Assembly (NCBI GenBank): GCA_963709405.1
Contig: CAVPXM010000055.1
Coordinates: forward strand, 391,656-455,655
Source of the DNA: an uncultured Nitrososphaerales archaeon
GTDB taxonomy: Archaea; Thermoproteota; Nitrososphaeria; Nitrososphaerales; Nitrososphaeraceae
Reading direction: 5' to 3'
DNA: 64,000 bases
Every line of letters begins with the position of its first letter. The stretch's first letter is position 1. A program made the position numbers and the translations under genes. The notes below the pieces were generated by a model. The model saw only the letters and a program-made list of their open reading frames with translations. It was not told the DNA's origin and made no database searches. Shown here one piece after another: positions 12,368 through 38,767 of this stretch.

Positions 12368-13084
12368 GTGTTTTCATTGTACTCTTTTTGGATATTTTTG
12401 GAGATTCTAGACAACATTTCCTTATTTGACCTGAACAAACGAGTGATCGCTTGTAATTTGTGCCCTCGTCTTATGCAATACTCTGTCTACATTGGAAGAA
12501 AAAAGACCAAACGTTTTGTAAATGAGCAATATTGGTCAAGACCTGTCCCAAGCTTCGGAGATCCAAAAGCCAAAGTACTTATAATTGGCTTAGCACCCGC
12601 CGCTCATGGCGGGAATAGAACCGGGCGAATGTTTACTGGAGATAGCTCGGGAGATTGGCTGGTAAGGGCATTATTCGAGTCGAAGTTTGCAAATATGCAA
12701 ACTAGCAATCACAGGGATGACGGACTTGTACTGAATGACATTTATGTCACTTCGGTCATAAGATGCGCACCTCCCAAAAATAGGCCTCTTGGATCTGAAA
12801 TAGAAAGCTGTTCAAGATATCTTTTGAACGAATTGGAAATCTTGAAATCGGTCCAGATCATTTTAACCCTAGGCCGAACCGCTTTTCATACCTATTGTAG
12901 GGTTTGCCACTTGAAGTCGCTCACATTTAGTCACGGCAAGTCATATTCTATTGACAAGAACAAAACCCTTGTTGCGTCGTACCATCCTAGCAGGCAAAAT
13001 ACCAATACCAGGCGGCTTAGCTGGAAGATGTGGATAGATGTATTCCACACACTAAGGTCGTTATTGAGGTCTGATGGCAAATAA
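12368..13084 (+). CDS. Uracil-DNA glycosylase family 5 (UdgB-like)
   Basis: GLAPAAHGGNRTGRMFTGD and YHPSRQNT signatures. Confidence 0.9.
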   Translation: MFSLYSFWIFLEILDNISLFDLNKRVIACNLCPRLMQYSVYIGRKKTKRFVNEQYWSRPVPSFGDPKAKVLIIGLAPAAHGGNRTGRMFTGDSSGDWLVRALFESKFANMQTSNHRDDGLVLNDIYVTSVIRCAPPKNRPLGSEIESCSRYLLNELEILKSVQIILTLGRTAFHTYCRVCHLKSLTFSHGKSYSIDKNKTLVASYHPSRQNTNTRRLSWKMWIDVFHTLRSLLRSDGK

Positions 13085-13319
13085 GTTCGTATCAGAATTA
13101 AAAATTAATGGATTGTCAATTCATTTATCAAAAGACGATTAGGACAAATTCTGCCCTTCGAAGCTGAATTCCAATGATTGACGATCTTGGAATCAGTGAT
13201 ATACAGAAATATCCGATCACGCTTAATCGATAATTTAAGAATTTATAATATGTTAATATCTCAAAACAATTGAGGGAATGTTAGGCTCGAAACTCATTGC
13301 AAGTAATATTTCTAGTAAA

Positions 13320-14321
13320 TTAGGCTAGGTAATTTGGTTTTGGCAGCATTCCGGTTTCAAAGTCCTTTCGCTCCTCATTCCTTATCACAATTTCTTCAAA
13401 ATACCTAATAATAGTAACTTCGGAGATCTTAGGTATCACAATTTCTTTGTCTTCAATGAGATCTAGTAACAGCGAGGGAAAATTTACTCCCGCCAGTGTT
13501 GCAAAAATTGTTCCTCCTCCCATTCTAGGATTGACTTCGACGAGCTTCAGAGTTCCTTCTGAAGATTCTTTCATCTGAATACAGCATGGTCCTCTTATCC
13601 TTATACAGCGGGCAATCTCCAAACAATTCTCCTCAAGTTCTATGTCGCGCACAATTTTACCTTTAGTTGAAATTCCTGCCTTCGTTTGGATCCTGATCCT
13701 AGGAACGGCTATCAAGGGTTTTTCATTCAGATCGCTTAATACGTCTATGGTATATTCTGTTCCTGGAAGAAACTCTTGATATATCAAATCATTCATTTTC
13801 GATGAAATGTATTTTAGTTCAGATTCATCGTCTATTTTCATAATGCCACGACTTCCTTTACCAAACCTAGGCTTTGCGATAATTGGAAATTGCTCGACAT
13901 GGCCAGGTTCGTCAGTAGTTTTAGGGACCGAAAAATCATGACGCAAATATTGATAGGTTTGCATTTTGTCACGGCATATTTCAAGGCTCTTTCTATCGCT
14001 AACTATAGCATGAACGCCCATTTCCAGGAGCCGTTCTCGATTTTCGCTGTATGGATATATGTCGAATCCCGATGTGGGCATAAGAACCTGAACTTTATGC
14101 CTTTTAATTATTTCTAATAGCCTCTCCACGAATAAACGATCATCAGCTTCAGGAATCACCTCGTTAAAATCTGACATGAAAAAGCCTGCTGAAAGATAGC
14201 TTGAATCGGTGGCTACGATTTTGCCCTTGTATTCAGCCATTCTTAATGACTTAATTGCATTAATGCCCGCGGGTGCGGCTGCGCCAGGAATGAGTACGAC
14301 GGATATTTCTGGGCTAGCCAA
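13320..14321 (-). CDS. ATP-grasp ligase (carbamoyl-phosphate-synthase-like)
   Basis: CRDK, IIAKPRFGKGSRG, YQEFLPGTEYTID, EVNPRMGGG. Confidence 0.88.
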   Translation of the reverse strand: MASPEISVVLIPGAAAPAGINAIKSLRMAEYKGKIVATDSSYLSAGFFMSDFNEVIPEADDRLFVERLLEIIKRHKVQVLMPTSGFDIYPYSENRERLLEMGVHAIVSDRKSLEICRDKMQTYQYLRHDFSVPKTTDEPGHVEQFPIIAKPRFGKGSRGIMKIDDESELKYISSKMNDLIYQEFLPGTEYTIDVLSDLNEKPLIAVPRIRIQTKAGISTKGKIVRDIELEENCLEIARCIRIRGPCCIQMKESSEGTLKLVEVNPRMGGGTIFATLAGVNFPSLLLDLIEDKEIVIPKISEVTIIRYFEEIVIRNEERKDFETGMLPKPNYLA

Positions 14322-15470
14322 CGGACATTACCAAGAAGTACTCTGTGTTTAACGATATAATAAATATTTATATAAAGAGTTATTGGACCATGTTAACTGG
14401 AATAGTGGGTAGATATCGCTAGCAATCTCATGCTTAGATTAGGAGCAATCTTTTCATTAGATTCCTTAAGTTGAACAGCACCGTTATTTGCTGGCTTTTT
14501 AGAAAGCATGCTTTTGATAGATTCCTTCAAGGCTTTTTAGAAGTAAAACTCAGGGATATTGAAGGAATCCGAGTATGTTAGATTAGCATATACATTATAT
14601 TGCGTTCTGAGAAATTCCAAGGTACCACCGTTTTTTCATCGAAAGAGCAACCATGTGTTTAATGCATAGCAGCATCTGGTCTCGCTGACTGTACGACGGT
14701 ACGCGGGTAAGAGGTATAGAATGTTTGTAAAAGTGTTGATAGAAGCATATTATCGAGACAGTTCTTCAGATATCCCATATTTCACACTTTGCTTCTCTTC
14801 AGAGCCTTGCCCAAGAATAAGTGTGGTACACTAGATATACATATTTGCAGGGATAGGTAGACTCGACTGAATTCAAGGTTATACAGGCATCACCACAATT
14901 CTATACTGAGAGAACTGAACTGAGAAGAAAAATGAGATATGAAAATTAATTAACGATAGGTGCTGAGTTGGTCCAACAGATAATCTGTAGGTTTAAAGAT
15001 AAGACCAGCTTCGACAAGATACGATAACATTGATTTCTGGTCAAGTATAACAAGGACATCAAATATCCTTCCATTATCTGTTGTTACGGGTGACAATGGA
15101 GTTGAGGGTAGTGAAGATAATCATCTTTTGATAAGATAAGCTTCGGATGTATTAAATGTAATCACAGATCGATTTGAAGATCTGCTGATATGAAAGACGC
15201 ATGGTAAGTATAGGAAACAAATGAAGCGCGGCCAAATTGTTGTACAATTAACGAAACAAGGATGAAACCATAATATCAGTCATAAAAAGTTGTCTGGAGA
15301 ACATATAACACCGAAGATAGTAAGAACACAAAACAGGGAATTATCATTCGAATGCATAGCCTCCAAAACCCAGAGATTAACTAAGTTTTCTATAATTACA
15401 TGGTTTCTACAAGACCTTATTTGGTGTTACATTTAAGACTCGCTAAAGCTGTGATGGGTTGGGGAATAAA

Positions 15471-16097
15471 ATGGTTGTAGACACTTCAGCAGATTATCAT
15501 ATTCATTCAAACTACAACGATCACTCCGATTCTGATCTCACCATCAATAATGTTATACACTTCGCAGAAAAAAATGGTTTAAAAAAAATCGCGTTTACTG
15601 AACACGTTAGAAGAAGTTCTGATTGGATTCCAAAATATTTAAACGAGATTCAGATATGTGCCAGAAATTCGCCTCTAGAAATCATACCTGGGTTCGAGGC
15701 AAAAATTCTATTGAATGGAAATATCGACTGTCCAGATGAATATCGGAGCAAATACTTTCTGGTTGCCAGTTTTCACACAGTTTTTGGAGACAAAGAGCGT
15801 TGGATCACTGCTCTCAAATCAGCCATTAGAGATCCCAGTGTAGATGTAATCGGCCATCTGGCTCCCGAACCCAGTTTCAAGATTATTGAGGGTGAGATAT
15901 ATTCTATAGCAGAAGAAATAGTGCAAAATCGTAAGATCGTTGAGCTAAATGCCAAATACCGTAGACCGCCTTTAGACTGGATAATATCCTTTAAGAACAG
16001 TGGAGTCAAATTCCATTTGGGCAGTGACGCTCATAGTCTCACGTCCATAGGACGCTTTGATCAGATAGCTAATCTCATCGCTGCGGTTGATGAGTAG
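15471..16097 (+). CDS. PHP-domain phosphoesterase
   Basis: DYHIHS, FTEH, GH, GSDAH metal ligands. Confidence 0.88.
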   Translation: MVVDTSADYHIHSNYNDHSDSDLTINNVIHFAEKNGLKKIAFTEHVRRSSDWIPKYLNEIQICARNSPLEIIPGFEAKILLNGNIDCPDEYRSKYFLVASFHTVFGDKERWITALKSAIRDPSVDVIGHLAPEPSFKIIEGEIYSIAEEIVQNRKIVELNAKYRRPPLDWIISFKNSGVKFHLGSDAHSLTSIGRFDQIANLIAAVDE

Positions 16098-16347
16098 CGA
16101 TATAGTGGGAATATTATAAAGTCTGTGCAAAATATGTCTTTTAGCCGCTTACTTTACATAGATAATTTGTAAAATTTAGTTGGATATTCTACTATCGCTT
16201 TGTTATGGGTAGTTTCTCAGTGATAATCGTAGAAGATTTTCTACTCTTACAAACATTAAAATTGCTTAAATTAGTGGCGATTGAAAATCGTATTGTAAGT
16301 GATTACTTGACAAAGTACAAATGTTTGAACGGAAATTTATATAGCAG

Positions 16348-18056
16348 TTGGGATTTCTTATGTTAGTCAATAGTTACATGACGACATCGGAAATAGGGCA
16401 AAGGCACAGTGTGAGATCTCTATTTTCGAAATTTGAAACGGTCAGGAATCAAGTTATTTCTGATTACATCTCCTCTTTTCCTGAAACACTTTCTGAAGCA
16501 GCCGAAAAGTTACTAGCACCAAATCGTCAGTTTCCTGTGATGAATGAACTGGTTATGTCAAACAGGGTAAGAATCGGAAGGTTTATCGAGAAATTCCACA
16601 ATGAGGCAGGGACAACCAGCTCTGATGTGAAGTATTCCCTAAATGCTCTGAACAGTCCTTCAGTTGAAATACTTGTGTCAATTCATCAACCAAACCTCTT
16701 TGCATTTGCTGGAGTTTATAAAAAAATCATCCTTCTGCAGTGTTTGAAATCCATTGCTGAGCAGAAGGGTATCGGTAGGAAATTCATAAACATGTTCCTC
16801 ATAGTCGACCATGATTTCATGGATGAGTTTTGGATACGCCATGCCCAACTCCCTAGCCTACGTCATTCTAATGGTATATTAGAGCTTAGGTTACCAATAA
16901 GGGTTCGTGATAGATGGCGGTTAATGTGCAATATGCAAGCACCAAGAAAATCTTTAATAGACTCTTGGAGAAAGCAAGTGACTTCATGGATAAAAAATGC
17001 GGATTCGCCATTATATCCAACTAAGTCAGAAAAATTTCAACTCCTGAAAAATTTGGACGAAATGTGGTATCAAGTTGAAGAATCCTATTCCAGATGCAAA
17101 TCCTATGCTGATTTTAATTCATTTATTATTTCTCGCTTGGTAAATACAATTTGGGGTTACGATACCCTATTTGTCAGGCTTTCCGATATACCTGAAGTAT
17201 TCGAAGATGGGTTCAAGTTTCTTATATCTAATTATGAAAAATATGCCCTAGCCCTGAACCAGAGCGAAGAAATGTTTGCAAGCCAAGGAATAAATACCGG
17301 CGTTAGTTCGAGCTCATACCTTAATGCTCCAGTCTGGCTTCACTGTAAATGCGGGAGCAAGGCTTCGGCAAAGATAGTTGAAAGCGGATTGGAGAGGCTA
17401 TATCTAGTTGGCAAATGCATAGCATGTAAGAGTGATCTGCAAATAGAGGTGGGATCGCGGGATAACCTTGACTTGTCTGGAGACACATTGCATTCCATAT
17501 CCCCTAGAGCAATACCTATCCTATTACTATTAGCTAGGGATCTGGGTATAGCGTGTTACGCTTCAGGGACAGGAGGAAGCCTAGGCTATATGTTAGTGGG
17601 GAGAATGGCCTTCACGCATCTAGCAGTTAATATGCCTCTAACTACAGTTTGGCCAGCTGCAGATATCTACAATGGAATAGGGCAATCAGAGGCGCTATCA
17701 CATATGAGAGTAAATAATGATATAGAACTGAGAGTCCTACTTGGAGAAACTGAGATCCATGAATGCTGAATATGCAGAAAGGATAACGCCCTTAATAGAT
17801 GAGCGTAATAAAGGAATCAAAGCTGGCCAACCAATAAAGAACATACTATCAGATATGTTTGCATTAAAGGAATCTCAAAGGAGGGTGCGTCACATGATTA
17901 AAACTGCAACGAAAGCTGAGAGCCGCAATAGACTTAAAACCATGTATAATCGATCACGTTGTGAACTATGGTATCAGGAGGATCGAATCCCAGTGGAAAG
18001 AGAACCTTATGGCAAATGATGATCTAGCAGCGCCAATTTTCTTGGTTAAAGAGTAG
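16348..18056 (+). CDS. BshC-like putative amide ligase with a Zn ribbon and C-terminal coiled coil (two frameshifts, near 17740 and 17920)
   Basis: SIHQPNLF...YKKII...VDHDF resembles the BshC GQQ..LF...YK...EDHD motifs; HCKC/CIAC; frames continue to TAG at 18054-18056. Confidence 0.5.
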
Positions 18057-18097
18057 TAACTAGTGAATTATATTTTTATGCAACGTGTGACTAAATA

Positions 18098-19177
18098 ATG
18101 GGTCACCGAAACCAGCTCAATGTACTCGTTACTGCATCTGGGGGCATCATAGGAGAAGGGATAATTAAGTGCCTGAATTGGGCCAATTCATCGTCAAAAG
18201 ACGATACAGTCTATTATAGAATATTTGCCACTGATATGGATGCTAAGGCGGCCGGATTGTATAGGTGCAATGGGACCGGATTCCTAGTTCCACGGTCCTC
18301 TTCTCCAGATTACATAGATGCCATTATTTCTATTGCCAGAAAAAATGATATAGATGCCATATTTGTTGGATCGGACAAAGAGCTAATAATACTCGGCCGA
18401 TTGCAGAACAAAATAGAAGCTGAAACTAATGCAAAAATTATTTCCAATCCTCTGAATATATTGGAGCTGGCCAGAGATAAATGGAAAACCTATGAATTCT
18501 TGGAATCTAATAATTTTTCAAGGGCCGAATCTTGTTTGCCGAAAGACAAGGATGCTTTCATTTCACGCTATGGTTTCCCTTTGGTAGTAAAACCTAGGGA
18601 AGGATATGGTTCGATGTATTTTACAGTAGTAAATGATGAAAGCGAATTAAAATATGGCATATCAAAAATTGAGGAAGTAGGTTGGCGACCGATACTTCAA
18701 GAATACTTGAAAGGCAACAATACTGAGTTTACGACTGGAGTGACCGTTGATAAACGAGGAGATCGAATAATGTCATCGATATCGATCCAGAAAACAATAA
18801 AACACGGACAAACGTATAAAGCCATAATCGATAGCTTCAACGAAATTCGTCGTCCATCTGAAGAAATTGCAATGAAGCTGGGTGTACGCGGTCCTGTTAA
18901 TATTCAGGCTATGCTTGTTGAAAACGAAGTAAAGGTTTTCGAAATAAATCCTCGATTTTCAGCAACTTGTCCAATGCGTGCGGTTGCAGGTGTGAATGAA
19001 CCAGATATTATACTCAGAAATATTTTCATGAATGAAGATTTTACTGCAACAGAGTACAAAAAATTATTATGTATGAGGTACTGGCAAGAAGTTTATATAG
19101 AGTATTCCACCTATGAGCAGACTTCACATCAAAGAATGGTTAGTGAAAGCAATTCACTCGTACCTTGTTACTTTTGA
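18098..19177 (+). CDS. ATP-grasp ligase (carbamoyl-phosphate-synthase-like), second paralog
   Basis: ARDKWKT, VVKPREGYGS, LQEYL, FEINPRFS. Confidence 0.88.
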   Translation: MGHRNQLNVLVTASGGIIGEGIIKCLNWANSSSKDDTVYYRIFATDMDAKAAGLYRCNGTGFLVPRSSSPDYIDAIISIARKNDIDAIFVGSDKELIILGRLQNKIEAETNAKIISNPLNILELARDKWKTYEFLESNNFSRAESCLPKDKDAFISRYGFPLVVKPREGYGSMYFTVVNDESELKYGISKIEEVGWRPILQEYLKGNNTEFTTGVTVDKRGDRIMSSISIQKTIKHGQTYKAIIDSFNEIRRPSEEIAMKLGVRGPVNIQAMLVENEVKVFEINPRFSATCPMRAVAGVNEPDIILRNIFMNEDFTATEYKKLLCMRYWQEVYIEYSTYEQTSHQRMVSESNSLVPCYF

Positions 19178-19213
19178 CTTAAATCTCTAACGGAATAATT
19201 GCTATGTTACCTT

Positions 19214-19852
19214 CTACCATTTCGATACCCTAACTACCTCAAAGGCTTCGGCATACTCTGTATTCATCTGATACCCTCTGTATCGGCATCTACCTATTAT
19301 CGCGTCAATCCAATATTGTCCACATCGGATTTTTTGTGAATCGAAGCAGTTCAAAGCATTCTTCTTAATTTCTATAGTATTTGCAATATCCACATAAAGT
19401 TGCGGTCTAAAGGCAGACTCCGTAATACCGCCAGGTATCGTGGTCTCGTACATGAATAGATTATTCAAGTCACGACAGGCAGCAATTACAGCTCTGGTTA
19501 AGGCTTGATGATCTTGATGCGAATCCCCTATCCACTGAGTAAAAACTGCATCCGGTTGGTGTTCTCGCACAATTTTGTCTATTATCCCAACAAACTTCCT
19601 GTTAAACACTACCTCATCGGGGGACAAGTCAAGGAGCTCCGGGTTACCGCAACCCATTAGCTTCGCCGAATTCGTCGCTTCAGACTGCCGTCCCTCCTTA
19701 GTATCGAACTTTACAAAATTTGGTAACGTAGCTATAACAAGGTGAACGTTGTAATTGTCATTCTGTGAAAGCTTGGCTACGGTTCCACCCATGCCTATCT
19801 CTATATCATCTGGATGTGCACCGAATATGAGTATAGATTCTTTTCTATTCAT
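19214..19852 (-). CDS. PIG-L/LmbE family N-acetylglucosaminyl deacetylase (BshB/MshB-like)
   Basis: GAHPDDIE, R..E, DSHQDH, C-terminal AEAF. Confidence 0.9.
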   Translation of the reverse strand: MNRKESILIFGAHPDDIEIGMGGTVAKLSQNDNYNVHLVIATLPNFVKFDTKEGRQSEATNSAKLMGCGNPELLDLSPDEVVFNRKFVGIIDKIVREHQPDAVFTQWIGDSHQDHQALTRAVIAACRDLNNLFMYETTIPGGITESAFRPQLYVDIANTIEIKKNALNCFDSQKIRCGQYWIDAIIGRCRYRGYQMNTEYAEAFEVVRVSKW

Positions 19853-19887
19853 ATAATGACCCTACAGCAAATATAATTTAAAAGATT

Positions 19888-21033
19888 CTAAATTACTTTA
19901 CAACCGTCTGAATTACTCTCCTTAAATGATCGTTTTGGTTCGGCATTCACAATTATGCTCCTAGTTTGTCTATACCTTTTGTAATCCTCATCTACTTCCA
20001 TCGCTGCTGCCAACATCTTACTTCTTATTGACTTGGAAGATTGCAAGAACATCTTAGTATCTTTTGGTAGACAATGGCCGCCTATTCCATCCCTTGGCTC
20101 AAGTATATCCACATTCCATTTTGTGTTTAAAGCATCACGTAATTCTGCAAAATTTATGTTGTTTGCTTGACAGTAAAGATAAAGATCTTCGGCAAATGCT
20201 ATTTGTAGATATCTGTGTGCATTTTCAGCAATCTTTGTAATTTCAGCAATTTCTACTTGAGGTACTGGATGCATACGAATCCCCAAGCTCTTGGGAGTAT
20301 TCACTGTATCATGATCTTTGATATTATTGTTATTCGTATTTTCGTTATATTTCTGTCCTGATCCTAGTGCTACTGCTACTGGTACTCCTGCTTCTGTCCG
20401 GCCTTCTCCTCCTCCTCCTTCTCCTCGTCGTCCTCCTAGTACTCTACCATCATAAAATTGCATGGCTACATTTAGACAGCACTCACAAACTCCACCCAAT
20501 ACTCGCAACTGATTGACACCATGCTCTTCTTGTTCTAATGCATACCAGCGATGTGGAGCATGAGCTACATGTAGTCTATGATTAAGCATTTCAAATACCT
20601 TCTTTGATGTACCTTTTGGAATAGTACTTTCTATTGATACTAGTGCTCCATTCTTTGCTTCTTTTGAAATCTTTTCAACTATAGATAATAGACCATCTAT
20701 TTGTGGAGAAAACATGTCATCTGGTTTGTGAGTAGAAACGCATATGATAAAGACATCGAATTCACTAAAATCGATAGCGTTATTGTTATTACTGCTGCTA
20801 GTACTACTGCTACTACTACTACCACCATCACTACCGTCATTACCACCAATCTTTTTTATTCCAGCTAATTTCTGTGCACGATCTATTGCTTTTGTACTTA
20901 TATCATAGCCATACGTATCAAATCCTCCTTGTTCCTTGACATATTTTGCTACAGGTAAACCGAGTTGGCCCAAACCTATCACAAGAACTTTTAAGCGAGA
21001 ATCAGCAGAGTGTTGTCCTTCTATTGTCGACAA
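19888..21033 (-). CDS. UDP-glucose/GDP-mannose dehydrogenase family protein with low-complexity inserts, lacking the C-terminal domain
   Basis: GLGQLG Rossmann motif, IEST, AEITKIAENA, GIGGHCLPKD. Confidence 0.85.
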   Translation of the reverse strand: MSTIEGQHSADSRLKVLVIGLGQLGLPVAKYVKEQGGFDTYGYDISTKAIDRAQKLAGIKKIGGNDGSDGGSSSSSSTSSSNNNNAIDFSEFDVFIICVSTHKPDDMFSPQIDGLLSIVEKISKEAKNGALVSIESTIPKGTSKKVFEMLNHRLHVAHAPHRWYALEQEEHGVNQLRVLGGVCECCLNVAMQFYDGRVLGGRRGEGGGGEGRTEAGVPVAVALGSGQKYNENTNNNNIKDHDTVNTPKSLGIRMHPVPQVEIAEITKIAENAHRYLQIAFAEDLYLYCQANNINFAELRDALNTKWNVDILEPRDGIGGHCLPKDTKMFLQSSKSIRSKMLAAAMEVDEDYKRYRQTRSIIVNAEPKRSFKESNSDGCKVI

Positions 21034-21251
21034 GTCTTCAAAACTGATCGAGAGCTATTATTATTAAAGAATTAAGGAACAAAAAAACATAAATTGTTAG
21101 CTATCATAACTTTGATTTTTTATAAGGTAAACTCAATCTAGGGCGGTATATTTTTTAGGAACACCCACATCCTTTATACAAAATCTTTATCATTACAACT
21201 CAAATGTTATAGAAAATAATCTTAAAATTGGCAATGATATGATGAGAACTG

Positions 21252-21848
21252 ATGCTCAATAAACTTAGAAAACGGCTTGATCCATTTCTCACCAGGCTCG
21301 CCCTTGCATTCGTTTCCAGGGGTTTTTCCCCCAATAGCCTGAGTCTTATAGGTTTTTTTGTTTCGATTGCGGCTGGAATAATGTATGCTCTATCATCACA
21401 TGTATCACTAAGTAATTACTATTTCAACACTCTAATTGGTGGAATACTTCTACTAATTGCTGGTCTATTCGACATTCTAGATGGGGCAGTCGCCAGGGTC
21501 ACCAACCAAATCTCTAATCGTGGAGCCTTCCTTGATTCATTGCTAGATAAGGTGGCCGAGGTAGTTGTGTTCATATCTATATTTTTAGGCAATCTTTCAA
21601 CACCTATCTGGTGCTTGATTGCTATTAGTTTATCACTCCTTGTTAGCTATACTAGGGCACGTGCAGATTCTTTGCATATCCCACTAATCGGCATTGGGAT
21701 TGGAGAACGTGCCGAGAGATTACTAATAATTGCCCTGGTTGGCATGATTCCTCTCTATGGTGCGATGCAAGTAGCAGTTATAATGGTATCATTTGTGGCT
21801 GGGGCGACGATTGTTCAAAGAATAAATACTGCAAATAAGAAGCTATAA
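21252..21848 (+). CDS. CDP-alcohol phosphatidyltransferase (archaetidylinositol-phosphate synthase-like)
   Basis: DILDGAVAR...GAFLDSLLD signature; SYTRARA and GERAER. Confidence 0.9.
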   Translation: MLNKLRKRLDPFLTRLALAFVSRGFSPNSLSLIGFFVSIAAGIMYALSSHVSLSNYYFNTLIGGILLLIAGLFDILDGAVARVTNQISNRGAFLDSLLDKVAEVVVFISIFLGNLSTPIWCLIAISLSLLVSYTRARADSLHIPLIGIGIGERAERLLIIALVGMIPLYGAMQVAVIMVSFVAGATIVQRINTANKKL

Positions 21849-21863
21849 CAATATAAAAGTATA

Positions 21864-22152
21864 TTACCTCAATCTTCCTGTGTTTCTTCTATCTGATTCA
21901 GATCGCACTTTGACTACACCTCGATGAACAGCACATGATACGCAATAGAATTTTACATCTGTCGAAGGTGCAATATATGCCCCTTGTGCCTTCAGCTCTT
22001 TTGCTAATGTCGGTTCGACAAGCGTTACTCTACCCGTGACTTTCTTTGCTTTATCTCTTGGAACCATCGCACCACACTGGCTACAATGAACAGTACCCTG
22101 AACTCCCTTTTCCTCCCTTGGTCCGTCCTCTACTTGTTCGCTTCTTTGGCAT
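21864..22152 (-). CDS. rps26e: 30S ribosomal protein S26e (one frameshift)
   Basis: Start MPKKRTSRGR.., then VHCSQCGAMVPRDKAKK and YCVSCAVH. Confidence 0.92.
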
Positions 22153-38632: not shown

Positions 38633-38767
38633 CAACGGAATCCCCAGCTTCTCGAGGTCTTCATCGGTTAGCTCGGGCAACAGATCCAAATCGATCTCTT
38701 GCTCGGAGAACAGCTCGACGTACTTGTCGAGGCCAAGTGCCCTGAGCCAATCCGCTGTGGACCGCAT
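38633..38767 (-). pseudogene. Truncated N-terminal SAM domain of a bacterial gene (typical start of SAM-cyclase-AAA proteins)
   Basis: MRSTADWLRALGLDKYVELFSEQEIDLDLLPELTDEDLEKLGIPL stops where the archaeal DNA begins. Confidence 0.8.

Follow-up and report, generated by a model that had tools for sequence, protein, structure and literature searches.

What do six neighbouring genes of an uncultured Nitrososphaerales archaeon make, and do they make it together? The genes lie in the window analysed here (the whole 64,000-nucleotide stretch of DNA) and encode two ATP-grasp ligases, a PHP-domain phosphoesterase, a BshC-like ligase, a PIG-L-family de-N-acetylase and a dehydrogenase. An earlier, sequence-only reading interpreted them as one pathway with three candidate products: a bacillithiol-like thiol, a compatible solute or an amino-acid-decorated surface glycan. 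That interpretation is partly supported. Among the three products we favour the surface glycan, disfavour the thiol and hold the solute to be highly improbable, and we give about an even chance to a cluster that de-N-acetylates a HexNAc-based surface glycan in the cytoplasm and then decorates it with amino acids at the expense of ATP. A literature search found no publication on the gene cluster.

The cluster and its enzyme families

ORF, Pfam and NCBIfam calls confirm all six genes, at the positions given earlier and between core genes (Table 1): thiolase, CN-hydrolase, DUF92 and uracil-DNA glycosylase on one side, and archaetidylinositol-phosphate synthase, NAD kinase, CTP synthase and Cdc6 on the other. 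The domain calls made earlier are right for all six in Pfam and NCBIfam profiles, and a hydropathy scan detected no hydrophobic segment in any of the six proteins.

Table 1. Features of the cluster and its immediate surroundings, in window coordinates
Feature	Position	Strand	Basis
ATP-grasp ligase 1, 333 aa, PRK12767 "carbamoyl-phosphate-synthase-like" type	13320-14321	-	Pfam, NCBIfam
Decayed DDE_Tnp_1-type insertion-sequence transposase	14559-15415	+	translated match to L108 ORF
PHP-domain phosphoesterase, 212 aa	15459-16097	+	Pfam PHP
BshC-like ligase, 564 aa as in intact homologue P0001	16348/16360-18056	+	profile, AlphaFold2, Foldseek
ATP-grasp ligase 2, 359 aa	18098-19177	+	NCBIfam NF009402, Pfam
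PIG-L/LmbE-family de-N-acetylase, 212 aa	19214-19852	-	Pfam PIG-L
UDPG_MGDP_dh-family dehydrogenase, 381 aa	19888-21033	-	Pfam PF03721 + PF00984
Archaetidylinositol-phosphate synthase, 198 aa	21252-21848	+	NCBIfam NF040950, Pfam CDP-OH_P_transf

The 1.1-kb spacer between ATP-grasp 1 and PHP (14322-15458) contains no ORF and is, judging from its sequence matches, a decayed DDE-transposase insertion sequence outside the pathway. It has ∼40 scattered matches within its own genome (66-85% identity), and a copy in locus L108 bears a 335-aa DDE_Tnp_1 ORF whose product aligns to the window in three separate frames, with 57-66% identity. The gap between the two genes is 115 bp in a same-genus locus (L020, genome G006) and similarly short in other same-genus loci (L027-L031).

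ATP-grasp 1 matches ATPgrasp_Ter (84 bits), ATP-grasp_3 (69 bits) and PylC-like_N in Pfam, falls under the cut-off of NCBIfam NF009402 (190 bits; cut-off 218), and has as its closest solved structure 2pn1, a protein of unassigned function; ATP-grasp 2 exceeds the NF009402 cut-off (295.9 bits) and also matches ATP-grasp_3 and PylC-like_N. The phosphoesterase matches Pfam PHP at 38.8 bits (cut-off 26.4), its top NCBIfam models (PRK08392, PRK09248 and the histidinol-phosphatase HisJ type) all being under cut-off. For the PIG-L protein the Pfam match is firm (74 bits; cut-off 28.2) and the top NCBIfam match is BshB1 (TIGR04001; 103.7 bits, under the cut-off of 182.5). Since the hydropathy scan shows no transmembrane segment, this protein is predicted to be cytoplasmic.

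Named an NDP-sugar dehydrogenase earlier, the last gene product keeps its family, but the idea that it supplies uronic acid is in doubt. It matches only the NAD-binding and central domains in Pfam, PDB matches 4r16 and 3ojl span the same two domains, and TIGR03026 is matched at 134.5 bits (under the cut-off of 189.8) with the model covered to about position 299 of 413; the C-terminal nucleotide-sugar-binding domain was not detected among Pfam, NCBIfam or PDB matches. The protein additionally carries low-complexity inserts, and its family is multicopy (7 matches in its own genome, 11 in G004). A uronic-acid-supplying role is doubtful because the nucleotide-sugar-binding domain is absent and the family is multicopy.

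The BshC-like ligase

The gene for the BshC-like ligase is where the earlier reading put it, but it is not a single open frame: the window holds three frames, corresponding to residues 1-462, 457-526 and 513-564 of the intact homologue P0001, which is 98% identical and places the start at the ATG at 16360. In contigs of 4 of 4 public runs, which come from 4 other studies, a base is missing at 17730-17732 and another at 17918, so the two frame breaks are most likely extra bases in this assembly, i.e. assembly errors; the gene is intact in related DNA.

Does its product have a BshC-like fold? The sequence-only reading had staked itself on this point in advance, and profile, AlphaFold2 and Foldseek results all bear it out. 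A profile built from 56 family members matches Bacillus subtilis BshC (PDB 4wbd; E=7e-7) in two collinear stretches that take in a common GxG...Y; the AlphaFold2 model (pLDDT 95, pTM 0.93) has 4wbd as its first-ranked Foldseek match (E=1.7e-16, TM 0.58-0.60, 580 aligned columns), followed by class-I LysRS and other class-I synthetases. The protein is thus distantly related to BshC, which serves bacillithiol synthesis in bacteria, and is modelled with a class-I aminoacyl-tRNA-synthetase-type Rossmann fold. The likeness to 4wbd extends over the full length, from the Rossmann-like domain and GxG...Y stretch to the long C-terminal helices, but identity is only 14% in the structural alignment. The score against the curated BshC model PF10079 is 17.6 bits (cut-off 27 bits), TIGR03998 gives no match, and a search of this genome with curated BshC families found none. 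At the position of the HIGH motif the archaeal family shows HQPN in place of the Gln-Gln stretch of BshC. It further carries an inserted knuckle of four cysteines, and its invariant residues are H109, Q110 and the Cys pattern C329/C331/C353/C356.

Linkage and modules in Nitrososphaeraceae

Co-occurrence in other genomes was the second point on which the pathway proposal had been made to depend, and the genes do co-occur across Nitrososphaeraceae, among archaea that oxidise ammonia in soil. The clustering is well beyond chance, as it recurs across genera. Among 23 BshC-like loci with 3 kb on both sides (one per species, from kin, so that the counts overstate independence), 22 have ATP-grasp 2 (16 loci) or PIG-L (only 11) no more than 3 kb away from the BshC-like gene, and ATP-grasp 1 and PHP form a divergent pair in 39 of 40 loci with room. 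Within Nitrososphaeraceae, the BshC-like gene has ATP-grasp 2 as its constant partner. Both genes were found in 18 of 24 family genomes and neither was found in the same 5 (G004, G009, G012, G016 and G017), two of which are 97-98% complete; in the remaining genome (G003, 75% complete), the BshC-like gene is at a contig end and ATP-grasp 2 was not found. Outside the family, the BshC-like gene was found in only 1 of 16 genomes of the order, and one complete genome has two copies, each within a glycan-type cluster.

One indivisible six-gene pathway is not borne out. The genes form separable modules, namely BshC-like with ATP-grasp 2 (with or without PIG-L), ATP-grasp 1 with PHP, and PIG-L with the dehydrogenase, and G009 and G017 contain ATP-grasp 1, PHP, PIG-L, dehydrogenase and GT2 genes without the BshC-like gene or ATP-grasp 2. 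Since modules occur apart, one common product is not proven. Might two or three unrelated modules (ATP-grasp 1 + PHP; BshC-like + ATP-grasp 2; PIG-L + dehydrogenase) be adjacent through inherited gene order only? Their separation in G009 and G017, the inversion and displacement of ATP-grasp 1/PHP from the BshC-like gene in L056, L065, L071, L076 and L097, and the multicopy dehydrogenase all fit such an arrangement. Yet the modules remain no more than a few kb apart across Nitrosopolaris, Nitrososphaera and Nitrosocosmicus, even where order and orientation have changed (L065, L071, L076), and in a paralogous cluster BshC-like, PIG-L and ATP-grasp 2 genes are brought together again, with different glycan genes. 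We consider the absence of a common product rather unlikely.

Which product?

A related question is where the glycosyltransferase might be. The earlier reading saw no BshA-type enzyme in the window, but the missing glycosyltransferase does exist: in relatives, a PgaC/NodC-like GT2 or a PelF-type GT4 adjoins the cluster, and this genome has the GT2 on another contig. Of 33 loci with room, only 12 have the GT2 beside ATP-grasp 1. The GT2 has membrane segments at its N- and C-termini and a QxxRW-type motif, and its best NCBIfam matches are PgaC/IcaA (E ∼1e-33 to 6e-36) and NodC, both under cut-off. Besides a GT4 over the PelF cut-off (156.8 vs 100 bits), the second, paralogous Nitrososphaera cluster encodes an epimerase of the GalE type and a protein containing 9 hydrophobic segments.

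Bathyarchaeia-type relatives of the BshC-like gene (30-34% identity, most with a precomputed PF10079 match) adjoin PIG-L within glycan clusters. Overall, PIG-L is adjacent to the BshC-like gene in 9 of 13 distant loci with room, which backs the BshB/BshC-type logic proposed earlier (PIG-L deacetylase, then ligase), and an ATP-grasp gene is adjacent in 0 of these 13. Distant loci carry genes for a Wzx-type flippase, for glycosyltransferases of families GT2 and GT4, for epimerases, for a DegT aminotransferase and for a hexapeptide acyltransferase. Instead of glycan genes, the most distant subgroup (L117, L118, L120) has genes for RuBisCO-like, flavin reductase and aldolase proteins as neighbours. 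It is the cluster GT2 or PelF-type GT4 in relatives, and the Wzx, glycosyltransferase, epimerase and aminotransferase genes in distant ones, that lead us to favour a surface glycan.

A low-molecular-weight thiol of the bacillithiol or mycothiol kind would be made differently: a GT4 or other transferase would supply a HexNAc-aglycone, PIG-L would deacetylate it, the BshC-like enzyme would add cysteine and the ATP-grasp enzymes would make further additions. BshC is the nearest relative of the ligase in structure and sequence, BshB1 tops the NCBIfam matches of the PIG-L gene, and the PelF-type GT4 of the paralogous cluster weakly matches MshA (95 bits) and BshA (89 bits), both under cut-off. However, no transferase reaches a BshA-equivalog score, the patchy spread of the BshC-like gene ill suits a main redox buffer, duplicate copies each sit in a glycan-type cluster, and the context is one of processive GT2, PelF, Wzx and epimerases. 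The resemblance to bacillithiol synthesis lies in the genetic coupling of a PIG-L-family deacetylase to a BshC-fold protein; the partners differ, being ATP-grasp ligases, PHP and polysaccharide synthases here and BshA there. To our knowledge, the bacillithiol and mycothiol pathways have no counterpart of the extra ATP-grasp ligases or PHP, which also counts against a thiol, a product that we regard as quite unlikely. No thiol product is known in archaea (PMC7278568).

Could the sugar instead be part of a GPI-like polar lipid head group, with GlcNAc placed on archaetidylinositol, deacetylated by PIG-L as in eukaryotic GPI and decorated by the ligases? PIG-L is, by its Pfam name, the family of GlcNAc-PI de-N-acetylase, and the archaetidylinositol-phosphate synthase (NF040950, 151.6 bits, cut-off 180; CDP-OH_P_transf, 63.5 bits) is transcribed divergently from the dehydrogenase in the window as well as in several genera. 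The synthase adjoins the dehydrogenase in L017, L025, L048, L056, L064, L076, L081, L092, L129, L136, L153 and L177, and lies between ATP-grasp 2 and the dehydrogenase in L025, L076 and L092. However, some lineages with room (e.g. L137, L176) do not have it next to the dehydrogenase; where loci extend far enough, it moves with the neighbouring core genes NAD kinase and CTP synthase (L048, L056, L064, L081; only NAD kinase in L177), a pattern that resembles conserved synteny; no transferase of the PIG-A kind was found; and the distant BshC-like/PIG-L pairs are without such a lipid gene nearby. The link of the synthase to the cluster is uncertain, and we assign the lipid head group little probability.

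Six proteins without hydrophobic segments would suit synthesis of a soluble compatible solute (an aminoacylated sugar acid, for example), and ATP-grasp and PHP enzymes are, by their family names, found in small-molecule pathways. An osmolyte-type transferase is absent, though, the context is membrane polysaccharide synthases and flippases, and nothing links the cluster to salt or drought, hence our very low estimate above.

The surface glycan has partial parallels among known systems. In the PNAG (PgaC/IcaA) and Pel (PelF) exopolysaccharide systems the polymer is a HexNAc chain that must be partly de-N-acetylated to function, and transferases of the same kinds are associated with the archaeal clusters, although the GT2 is far under the equivalog cut-offs (116-127 vs 422 bits). 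The PNAG and Pel deacetylases PgaB, IcaB and PelA are extracytoplasmic and of a family other than PIG-L, and we know of no amino-acid re-acylation in these systems. In the Campylobacter jejuni HS:2 capsule, as described in PMC11800397, the amide between glucuronate of the growing chain and serinol phosphate is made in the cytoplasm by an ATP-dependent amidoligase (the C-terminal part of Cj1438), and a phosphatase (Cj1435) then removes the phosphate; the ATP-grasp 1/PHP pair may be analogous, with PHP in place of the HAD phosphatase. An archaeal precedent in chemistry, from a different phylum, comes from Halococcus morrhuae, whose wall heteropolysaccharide, according to PMC4187196, has N-glycyl-glucosaminyl bridges (an amino acid amide-linked to the glucosamine amine) as well as uronic acids.

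How, then, might the decorated glycan be made? We infer the substrates, the amino acid used, the order of the steps and the nature of the final product as follows. The backbone would come from the PgaC/NodC-like processive GT2, whose gene lies outside the cluster in this genome and beside it in other genera, or from the PelF-type GT4 in the paralogous Nitrososphaera cluster. PIG-L would take the N-acetyl group off HexNAc, either in a glycoside precursor or in a growing chain at the inner membrane face, the BshC-like enzyme would couple an amino acid to the sugar amine thus exposed, consuming ATP and yielding an N-aminoacyl-hexosamine, and ATP-grasp 2 would add or cap one further residue. Additionally, ATP-grasp 1 and PHP, as a second module, would make another amide, possibly from a sugar carboxylate and a phosphorylated amine, followed by phosphate removal. 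The substrates of the characterised PIG-L enzymes known to us are small glycosides or lipids rather than polymers; activity of a cytoplasmic PIG-L on a polymer would, if true, be new.

Content and integrity of the cluster

All six genes that the sequence-only reading had listed are present in the window, with families assigned by Pfam and NCBIfam (see the table). They lie between housekeeping genes, namely those for a thiolase, a CN-hydrolase, DUF92 and a uracil-DNA glycosylase on one side and those for archaetidylinositol-phosphate synthase, NAD kinase, CTP synthase and Cdc6 on the other, in a genome of 4.8 Mb and 100 contigs whose relatives are Nitrososphaeraceae according to public records. 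The PIG-L/LmbE de-N-acetylase carries close to its N-terminus the sequence AHPDDIE, which we take to be the metal-binding motif of the PIG-L family, and it scores below the equivalog cut-off of the BshB1 model TIGR04001 (103.7 versus 182.5 bits). An Rfam scan at E up to 0.1 found no RNA families in 13000-22000.

Positions of the features, with family matches and occurrence in related genomes
Feature	Position (strand)	Family match	Nitrososphaeraceae genomes	Same order, other families
ATP-grasp 1	13320-14321 (-)	PRK12767 'carbamoyl-phosphate-synthase-like' type; NF009402 190.3 bits, below cut-off of 218; Pfam ATP-grasp domains well above cut-offs	21/24	0/16
PHP phosphoesterase	15459-16097 (+)	PF02811 38.8 bits, gathering score 26.4	20/24	0/16
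BshC-like	16348/16360-18056 (+)	PF10079 (BshC N-terminal domain) 17.6 bits, E=0.0026, below cut-off of 27	19/24	1/16
ATP-grasp 2	18098-19177 (+)	PRK12767 'carbamoyl-phosphate-synthase-like' type; NF009402 295.9 bits, above equivalog cut-off of 218	18/24	1/16
PIG-L/LmbE de-N-acetylase	19214-19852 (-)	PF02585 74.1 bits, cut-off 28.2	19/24 (2 with paralogues only)	2/16 (36-37% identity)
Dehydrogenase	19888-21033 (-)	PF03721 and PF00984 only		
Other dehydrogenase family members, source genome (G000)	G000:C38:80456-81328; C63:145641-146707; C70:1750-2537			
Repeat of about 100 bp	14380-14485			
Match to transposase, three frames	14559-15415	DDE_Tnp_1		
First extra base; its heptamer CTGAGAG	17730-17732; 17726-17732			
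Second extra base; its heptamer CTGAGAG	17918; 17912-17918			
G+C switch	38640-38700			
High-G+C part	38700-64000 (window end)			
551-aa protein, nine hydrophobic segments	L015:14763-16418			
215-aa TPR/SNAP-like protein	L015:11664-12311			
Most distant BshC-like subgroup	L117:9001-10563; L118:5250-6815; L120:2235-3797			

One name did not survive closer inspection. The dehydrogenase, of the UDPG_MGDP_dh family, had been taken for an NDP-sugar dehydrogenase; of the three domains expected, the nucleotide-sugar-binding C-terminal one was not found in it, its reading frame stops about 30 residues beyond the central domain, and the subfamily model TIGR03026 is matched to about position 299 of 413, at 134.5 bits versus a cut-off of 189.8. 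The two-domain frames of relatives are likewise short (363-387 aa, for example, in the four copies of the complete genome G007), and paralogues are many, with 7 matches in the source genome and 11 in its relative G004. Because the domain is absent and the family is multicopy, the name is not justified. The window dehydrogenase has Ser/Asn/Gly-rich inserts, and one copy on contig C63, 94-98% identical, is split into two pieces.

Is the BshC-like gene intact? The window copy has no single open frame, and an intact homologue, P0001 (564 aa, 98% identical), aligns across three successive frames. Two extra bases are absent from the contigs of all four public runs (four studies) compared over 16300-18100, which are otherwise at least 99% alike in most pieces and one of which may be the source sample. 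Since all four runs lack the extra bases, we read the breaks as probably assembly errors and not as marks of a pseudogene; both bases fall within copies of one heptamer, a pattern that would be more in keeping with a systematic consensus error at a motif than with random mutation. About 40 sequences scattered over the genome match the 1.1-kb ORF-free gap that separates ATP-grasp 1 from PHP. One of these copies holds a 335-aa DDE_Tnp_1 transposase frame that matches the window, and the spacing of the two genes is 115 bp in the same-genus locus L020 (genome G006) and similarly short in loci L027-L031. On these sequence comparisons, the gap is a decayed insertion sequence. Directly upstream of the insertion-sequence remnant stands a separate repeat with a dozen or so other genome copies (74-89% identity), which may be a miniature mobile element. 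Elsewhere in the window, the G+C content rises from about 0.40 to about 0.62 within 300 bases, with values of 0.59-0.68 beyond the switch versus 0.35-0.42 before it. This switch is either a chimeric assembly join or a large foreign insert, and none of the eight ORFs around the boundary matched a Pfam family.

The BshC-like family

Judged by family models, the BshC-like protein falls short of BshC. Its match to PF10079 is faint, a PF10079 search across the whole source genome gave no match while Bacillus, Thermus and Deinococcus controls were positive, and the BshC equivalog model TIGR03998 is reached by none of the 21 family members tested (the window protein, P0001 and 19 relatives), with matches in two relatives alone, at 21-25 bits versus 265.8. 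Profile and fold comparisons reach further. A profile of 56 members matches the sequence of the Bacillus subtilis BshC structure 4wbd at E=7e-7 in two collinear stretches, and Foldseek with the AlphaFold2 model (pLDDT 95, pTM 0.93) returns 4wbd first, over the whole length (580 columns, E=1.7e-16, TM 0.58-0.60), with class-I lysyl-tRNA synthetase and then other class-I synthetases next in rank. The predicted structure thus has the BshC fold, with a Rossmann-like domain and C-terminal coiled-coil helices, its long helices spanning residues 454-488 and 493-524. Invariant in the family are H109-Q110 (HQPN), directly past the first strand, and four cysteines (CxC...CxxC) inside a beta-hairpin insert.

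The family is large, with at least 869 proteins at 90% clustering, nearly all of them without a name, and 376 clusters at 50% identity (E up to 0.001). One subfamily, 30-34% identical and from Bathyarchaeota/Bathyarchaeia where named, has a precomputed PF10079 match in most members and is the bridge between the BshC-like family and BshC. The fold, the profile match and this bridging subfamily, set against the missed cut-offs, make the BshC-like protein a distant BshC homologue and not a BshC. A kinship with WbqC, proposed from a likeness of motif, was rejected, the Pfam WbqC model being silent at the locus and its sole match in the genome lying elsewhere at E=0.09. In the most distant subgroup, whose proteins have about 520 aa and share 23-27% identity with that of the window, the neighbouring genes encode RuBisCO-like proteins, flavin reductases, a DeoC-type aldolase and a zinc alcohol dehydrogenase, with glycan genes absent; this subgroup may act in another small-molecule pathway.

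Modules, transferases and competing products

Do the six genes form one pathway, as the sequence-only reading had proposed? Each gene was searched in 41 related genomes including the source, with 24 Nitrososphaeraceae and 16 genomes from other families of the order. The genes usually co-occur in Nitrososphaeraceae, which bears out one part of that proposal, but they are separable: five genomes (G004, G009, G012, G016 and G017; 84-98% complete) lack both BshC-like and ATP-grasp 2, and of these five G009 and G017 keep ATP-grasp 1, PHP, PIG-L, the dehydrogenase and a GT2 glycosyltransferase. In 80 one-per-species loci mapped by tblastn, on short contigs from related organisms, ATP-grasp 1 and PHP stand next to each other in divergent orientation in 39 of the 40 with room. 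Where the BshC-like gene is flanked by 3 kb on either side (23 loci), ATP-grasp 2 lies within that distance in 16, PIG-L in 11 and either in 22. Co-occurrence and the two exceptional genomes together resolve the six genes into two or three modules, usually together and able to part. That modules are found apart would suit wholly independent modules with no common product, which we regard as rather doubtful; the recurrent deep pairing of PIG-L with BshC homologues argues for one logic, in which a sugar amine is exposed and then acylated with an ATP-activated amino acid. Of the 13 distant BshC-like loci (<40% identity) with room, 9 have PIG-L as an immediate neighbour and none has an ATP-grasp gene there; the surroundings consist of genes for a Wzx-type flippase, GT2, GT4, epimerases, a DegT aminotransferase, a hexapeptide transferase and exosortase-like proteins.

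The glycosyltransferase reported as missing is indeed absent from the window, but a candidate exists outside it: a 490-aa GT2 stands beside ATP-grasp 1 in many genera (12 of 33 loci with room), and its orthologue in the source genome (61% identity) is on contig C21 among unrelated genes. This GT2 has membrane segments at both termini and a QQIRW motif, and its best NCBIfam matches, to the PNAG synthase PgaC/IcaA and to NodC, are well under cut-off. The BshA cut-off is reached by no transferase, the PelF-type GT4 of relatives scoring 89 versus 273.7 bits. A second, paralogous cluster in Nitrososphaera (L015) has the order ATP-grasp 2, 9-hydrophobic-segment protein, GalE-type epimerase, GT4, TPR-like protein, PIG-L paralogue and BshC-like paralogue. 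Its GT4, which the window lacks, exceeds the PelF cut-off (156.8 versus 100 bits), and family models identified no other Pel protein there. The nine-segment and TPR-like proteins occupy the positions expected of PelG- and PelE-like partners; neither has a Pfam match above cut-off or an NCBIfam match, the TPR-like one giving a sub-threshold match to SNAP only.

These surroundings bear on what the product might be. A bacillithiol-like thiol would fit the nearest homologues of the cluster enzymes and, if real, would be the first archaeal hexosamine thiol, but the patchy distribution, the duplication of the BshC-like gene and the polysaccharide context agree poorly with it, and we consider it unlikely. 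We think it just as improbable that the cluster makes a GPI-like lipid head group, which the PIG-L family name and the adjoining inositol-lipid gene would suggest, but whose archaetidylinositol-phosphate synthase is linked to the cluster in only part of the lineages. The characterized PIG-L enzymes known to us act on small glycosides or lipids, which keeps a soluble or lipid product in play; among such products a compatible solute finds little support and is very improbable indeed.

Proposed chemistry and its meaning

Three of the six cluster proteins are predicted to be ligases that use ATP, and a hydropathy scan found no hydrophobic segments in any of the six, so the chemistry would be cytoplasmic. 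We hypothesize that PIG-L would free the sugar amine and that the BshC-like ligase would attach to it an amino acid activated by ATP, the acceptor being either a precursor glycoside or the growing chain. For the latter, the Campylobacter jejuni capsule is a documented precedent: in the relevant passages of PMC11800397, an ATP-dependent ligase joins serinol phosphate to glucuronate, and a phosphatase then takes the phosphate off. The ATP-grasp 1/PHP pair could act in a similar manner, by amidation followed by phosphate removal, and ATP-grasp 2, which in Nitrososphaeraceae constantly accompanies the BshC-like gene, might add or cap a further residue. The threonine-adding enzyme of Methanococcus maripaludis may be of the same ATP-grasp type; we do not use it as evidence, and a literature search on MMP1084/AglU and threonine found nothing. 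The substrates, the amino acid used and the final product are all ones that we infer. Halococcus walls offer an archaeal chemical precedent for an amino acid on the amine of glucosamine, their N-glycyl-glucosaminyl bridge, as described in passages of PMC4187196. Going a step further, and tentatively, we suggest as a possibility that Nitrososphaeraceae and other archaea with the PIG-L/BshC-like pair might make a hitherto unrecognized glycopeptide-like surface polymer, i.e. a HexNAc chain whose de-acetylated amines bear amino acids or short peptides, built by BshC-like and ATP-grasp ligases without ribosomes or Mur ligases. By analogy with the Halococcus links, these peptides might form bridges between glycan strands.

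Our literature searches found no paper tying BshC homologues to Nitrososphaera or to archaeal glycans. Among the matches listed for BshC and archaea, only one review treats archaea at length, and it merely counts InterPro hits; the bacillithiol passages of one paper found under Thaumarchaeota do not concern archaea, and titles and abstract openings on Nitrososphaera and mycothiol held nothing relevant. An amino-sugar-rich glycocalyx is only speculated in the pertinent passages of a 2024 comparative study of Nitrosocosmicus (PMC11559005). What would be new, then, is that archaeal glycan clusters employ the deacetylase and BshC-type-ligase logic anew, in combination with ATP-grasp ligases; this deacetylate-then-ligate logic would be widespread there and not restricted to bacterial thiol synthesis. 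To our knowledge, BshC chemistry has never been reconstituted. If the glycopeptide-like polymer is real, the sugar-amine aminoacyl ligase that has long been missing would be the BshC-like family of archaea, which would also offer a system for studying that chemistry. The soil ammonia oxidizers of the Nitrososphaeraceae are major nitrifiers about whose envelope and exopolymer chemistry very little is known, and the cluster gives them a conserved, testable set of enzymes that are candidates for the amino-acid decoration of amino sugars, including the N-aminoacyl-glucosamine links of other archaeal walls.
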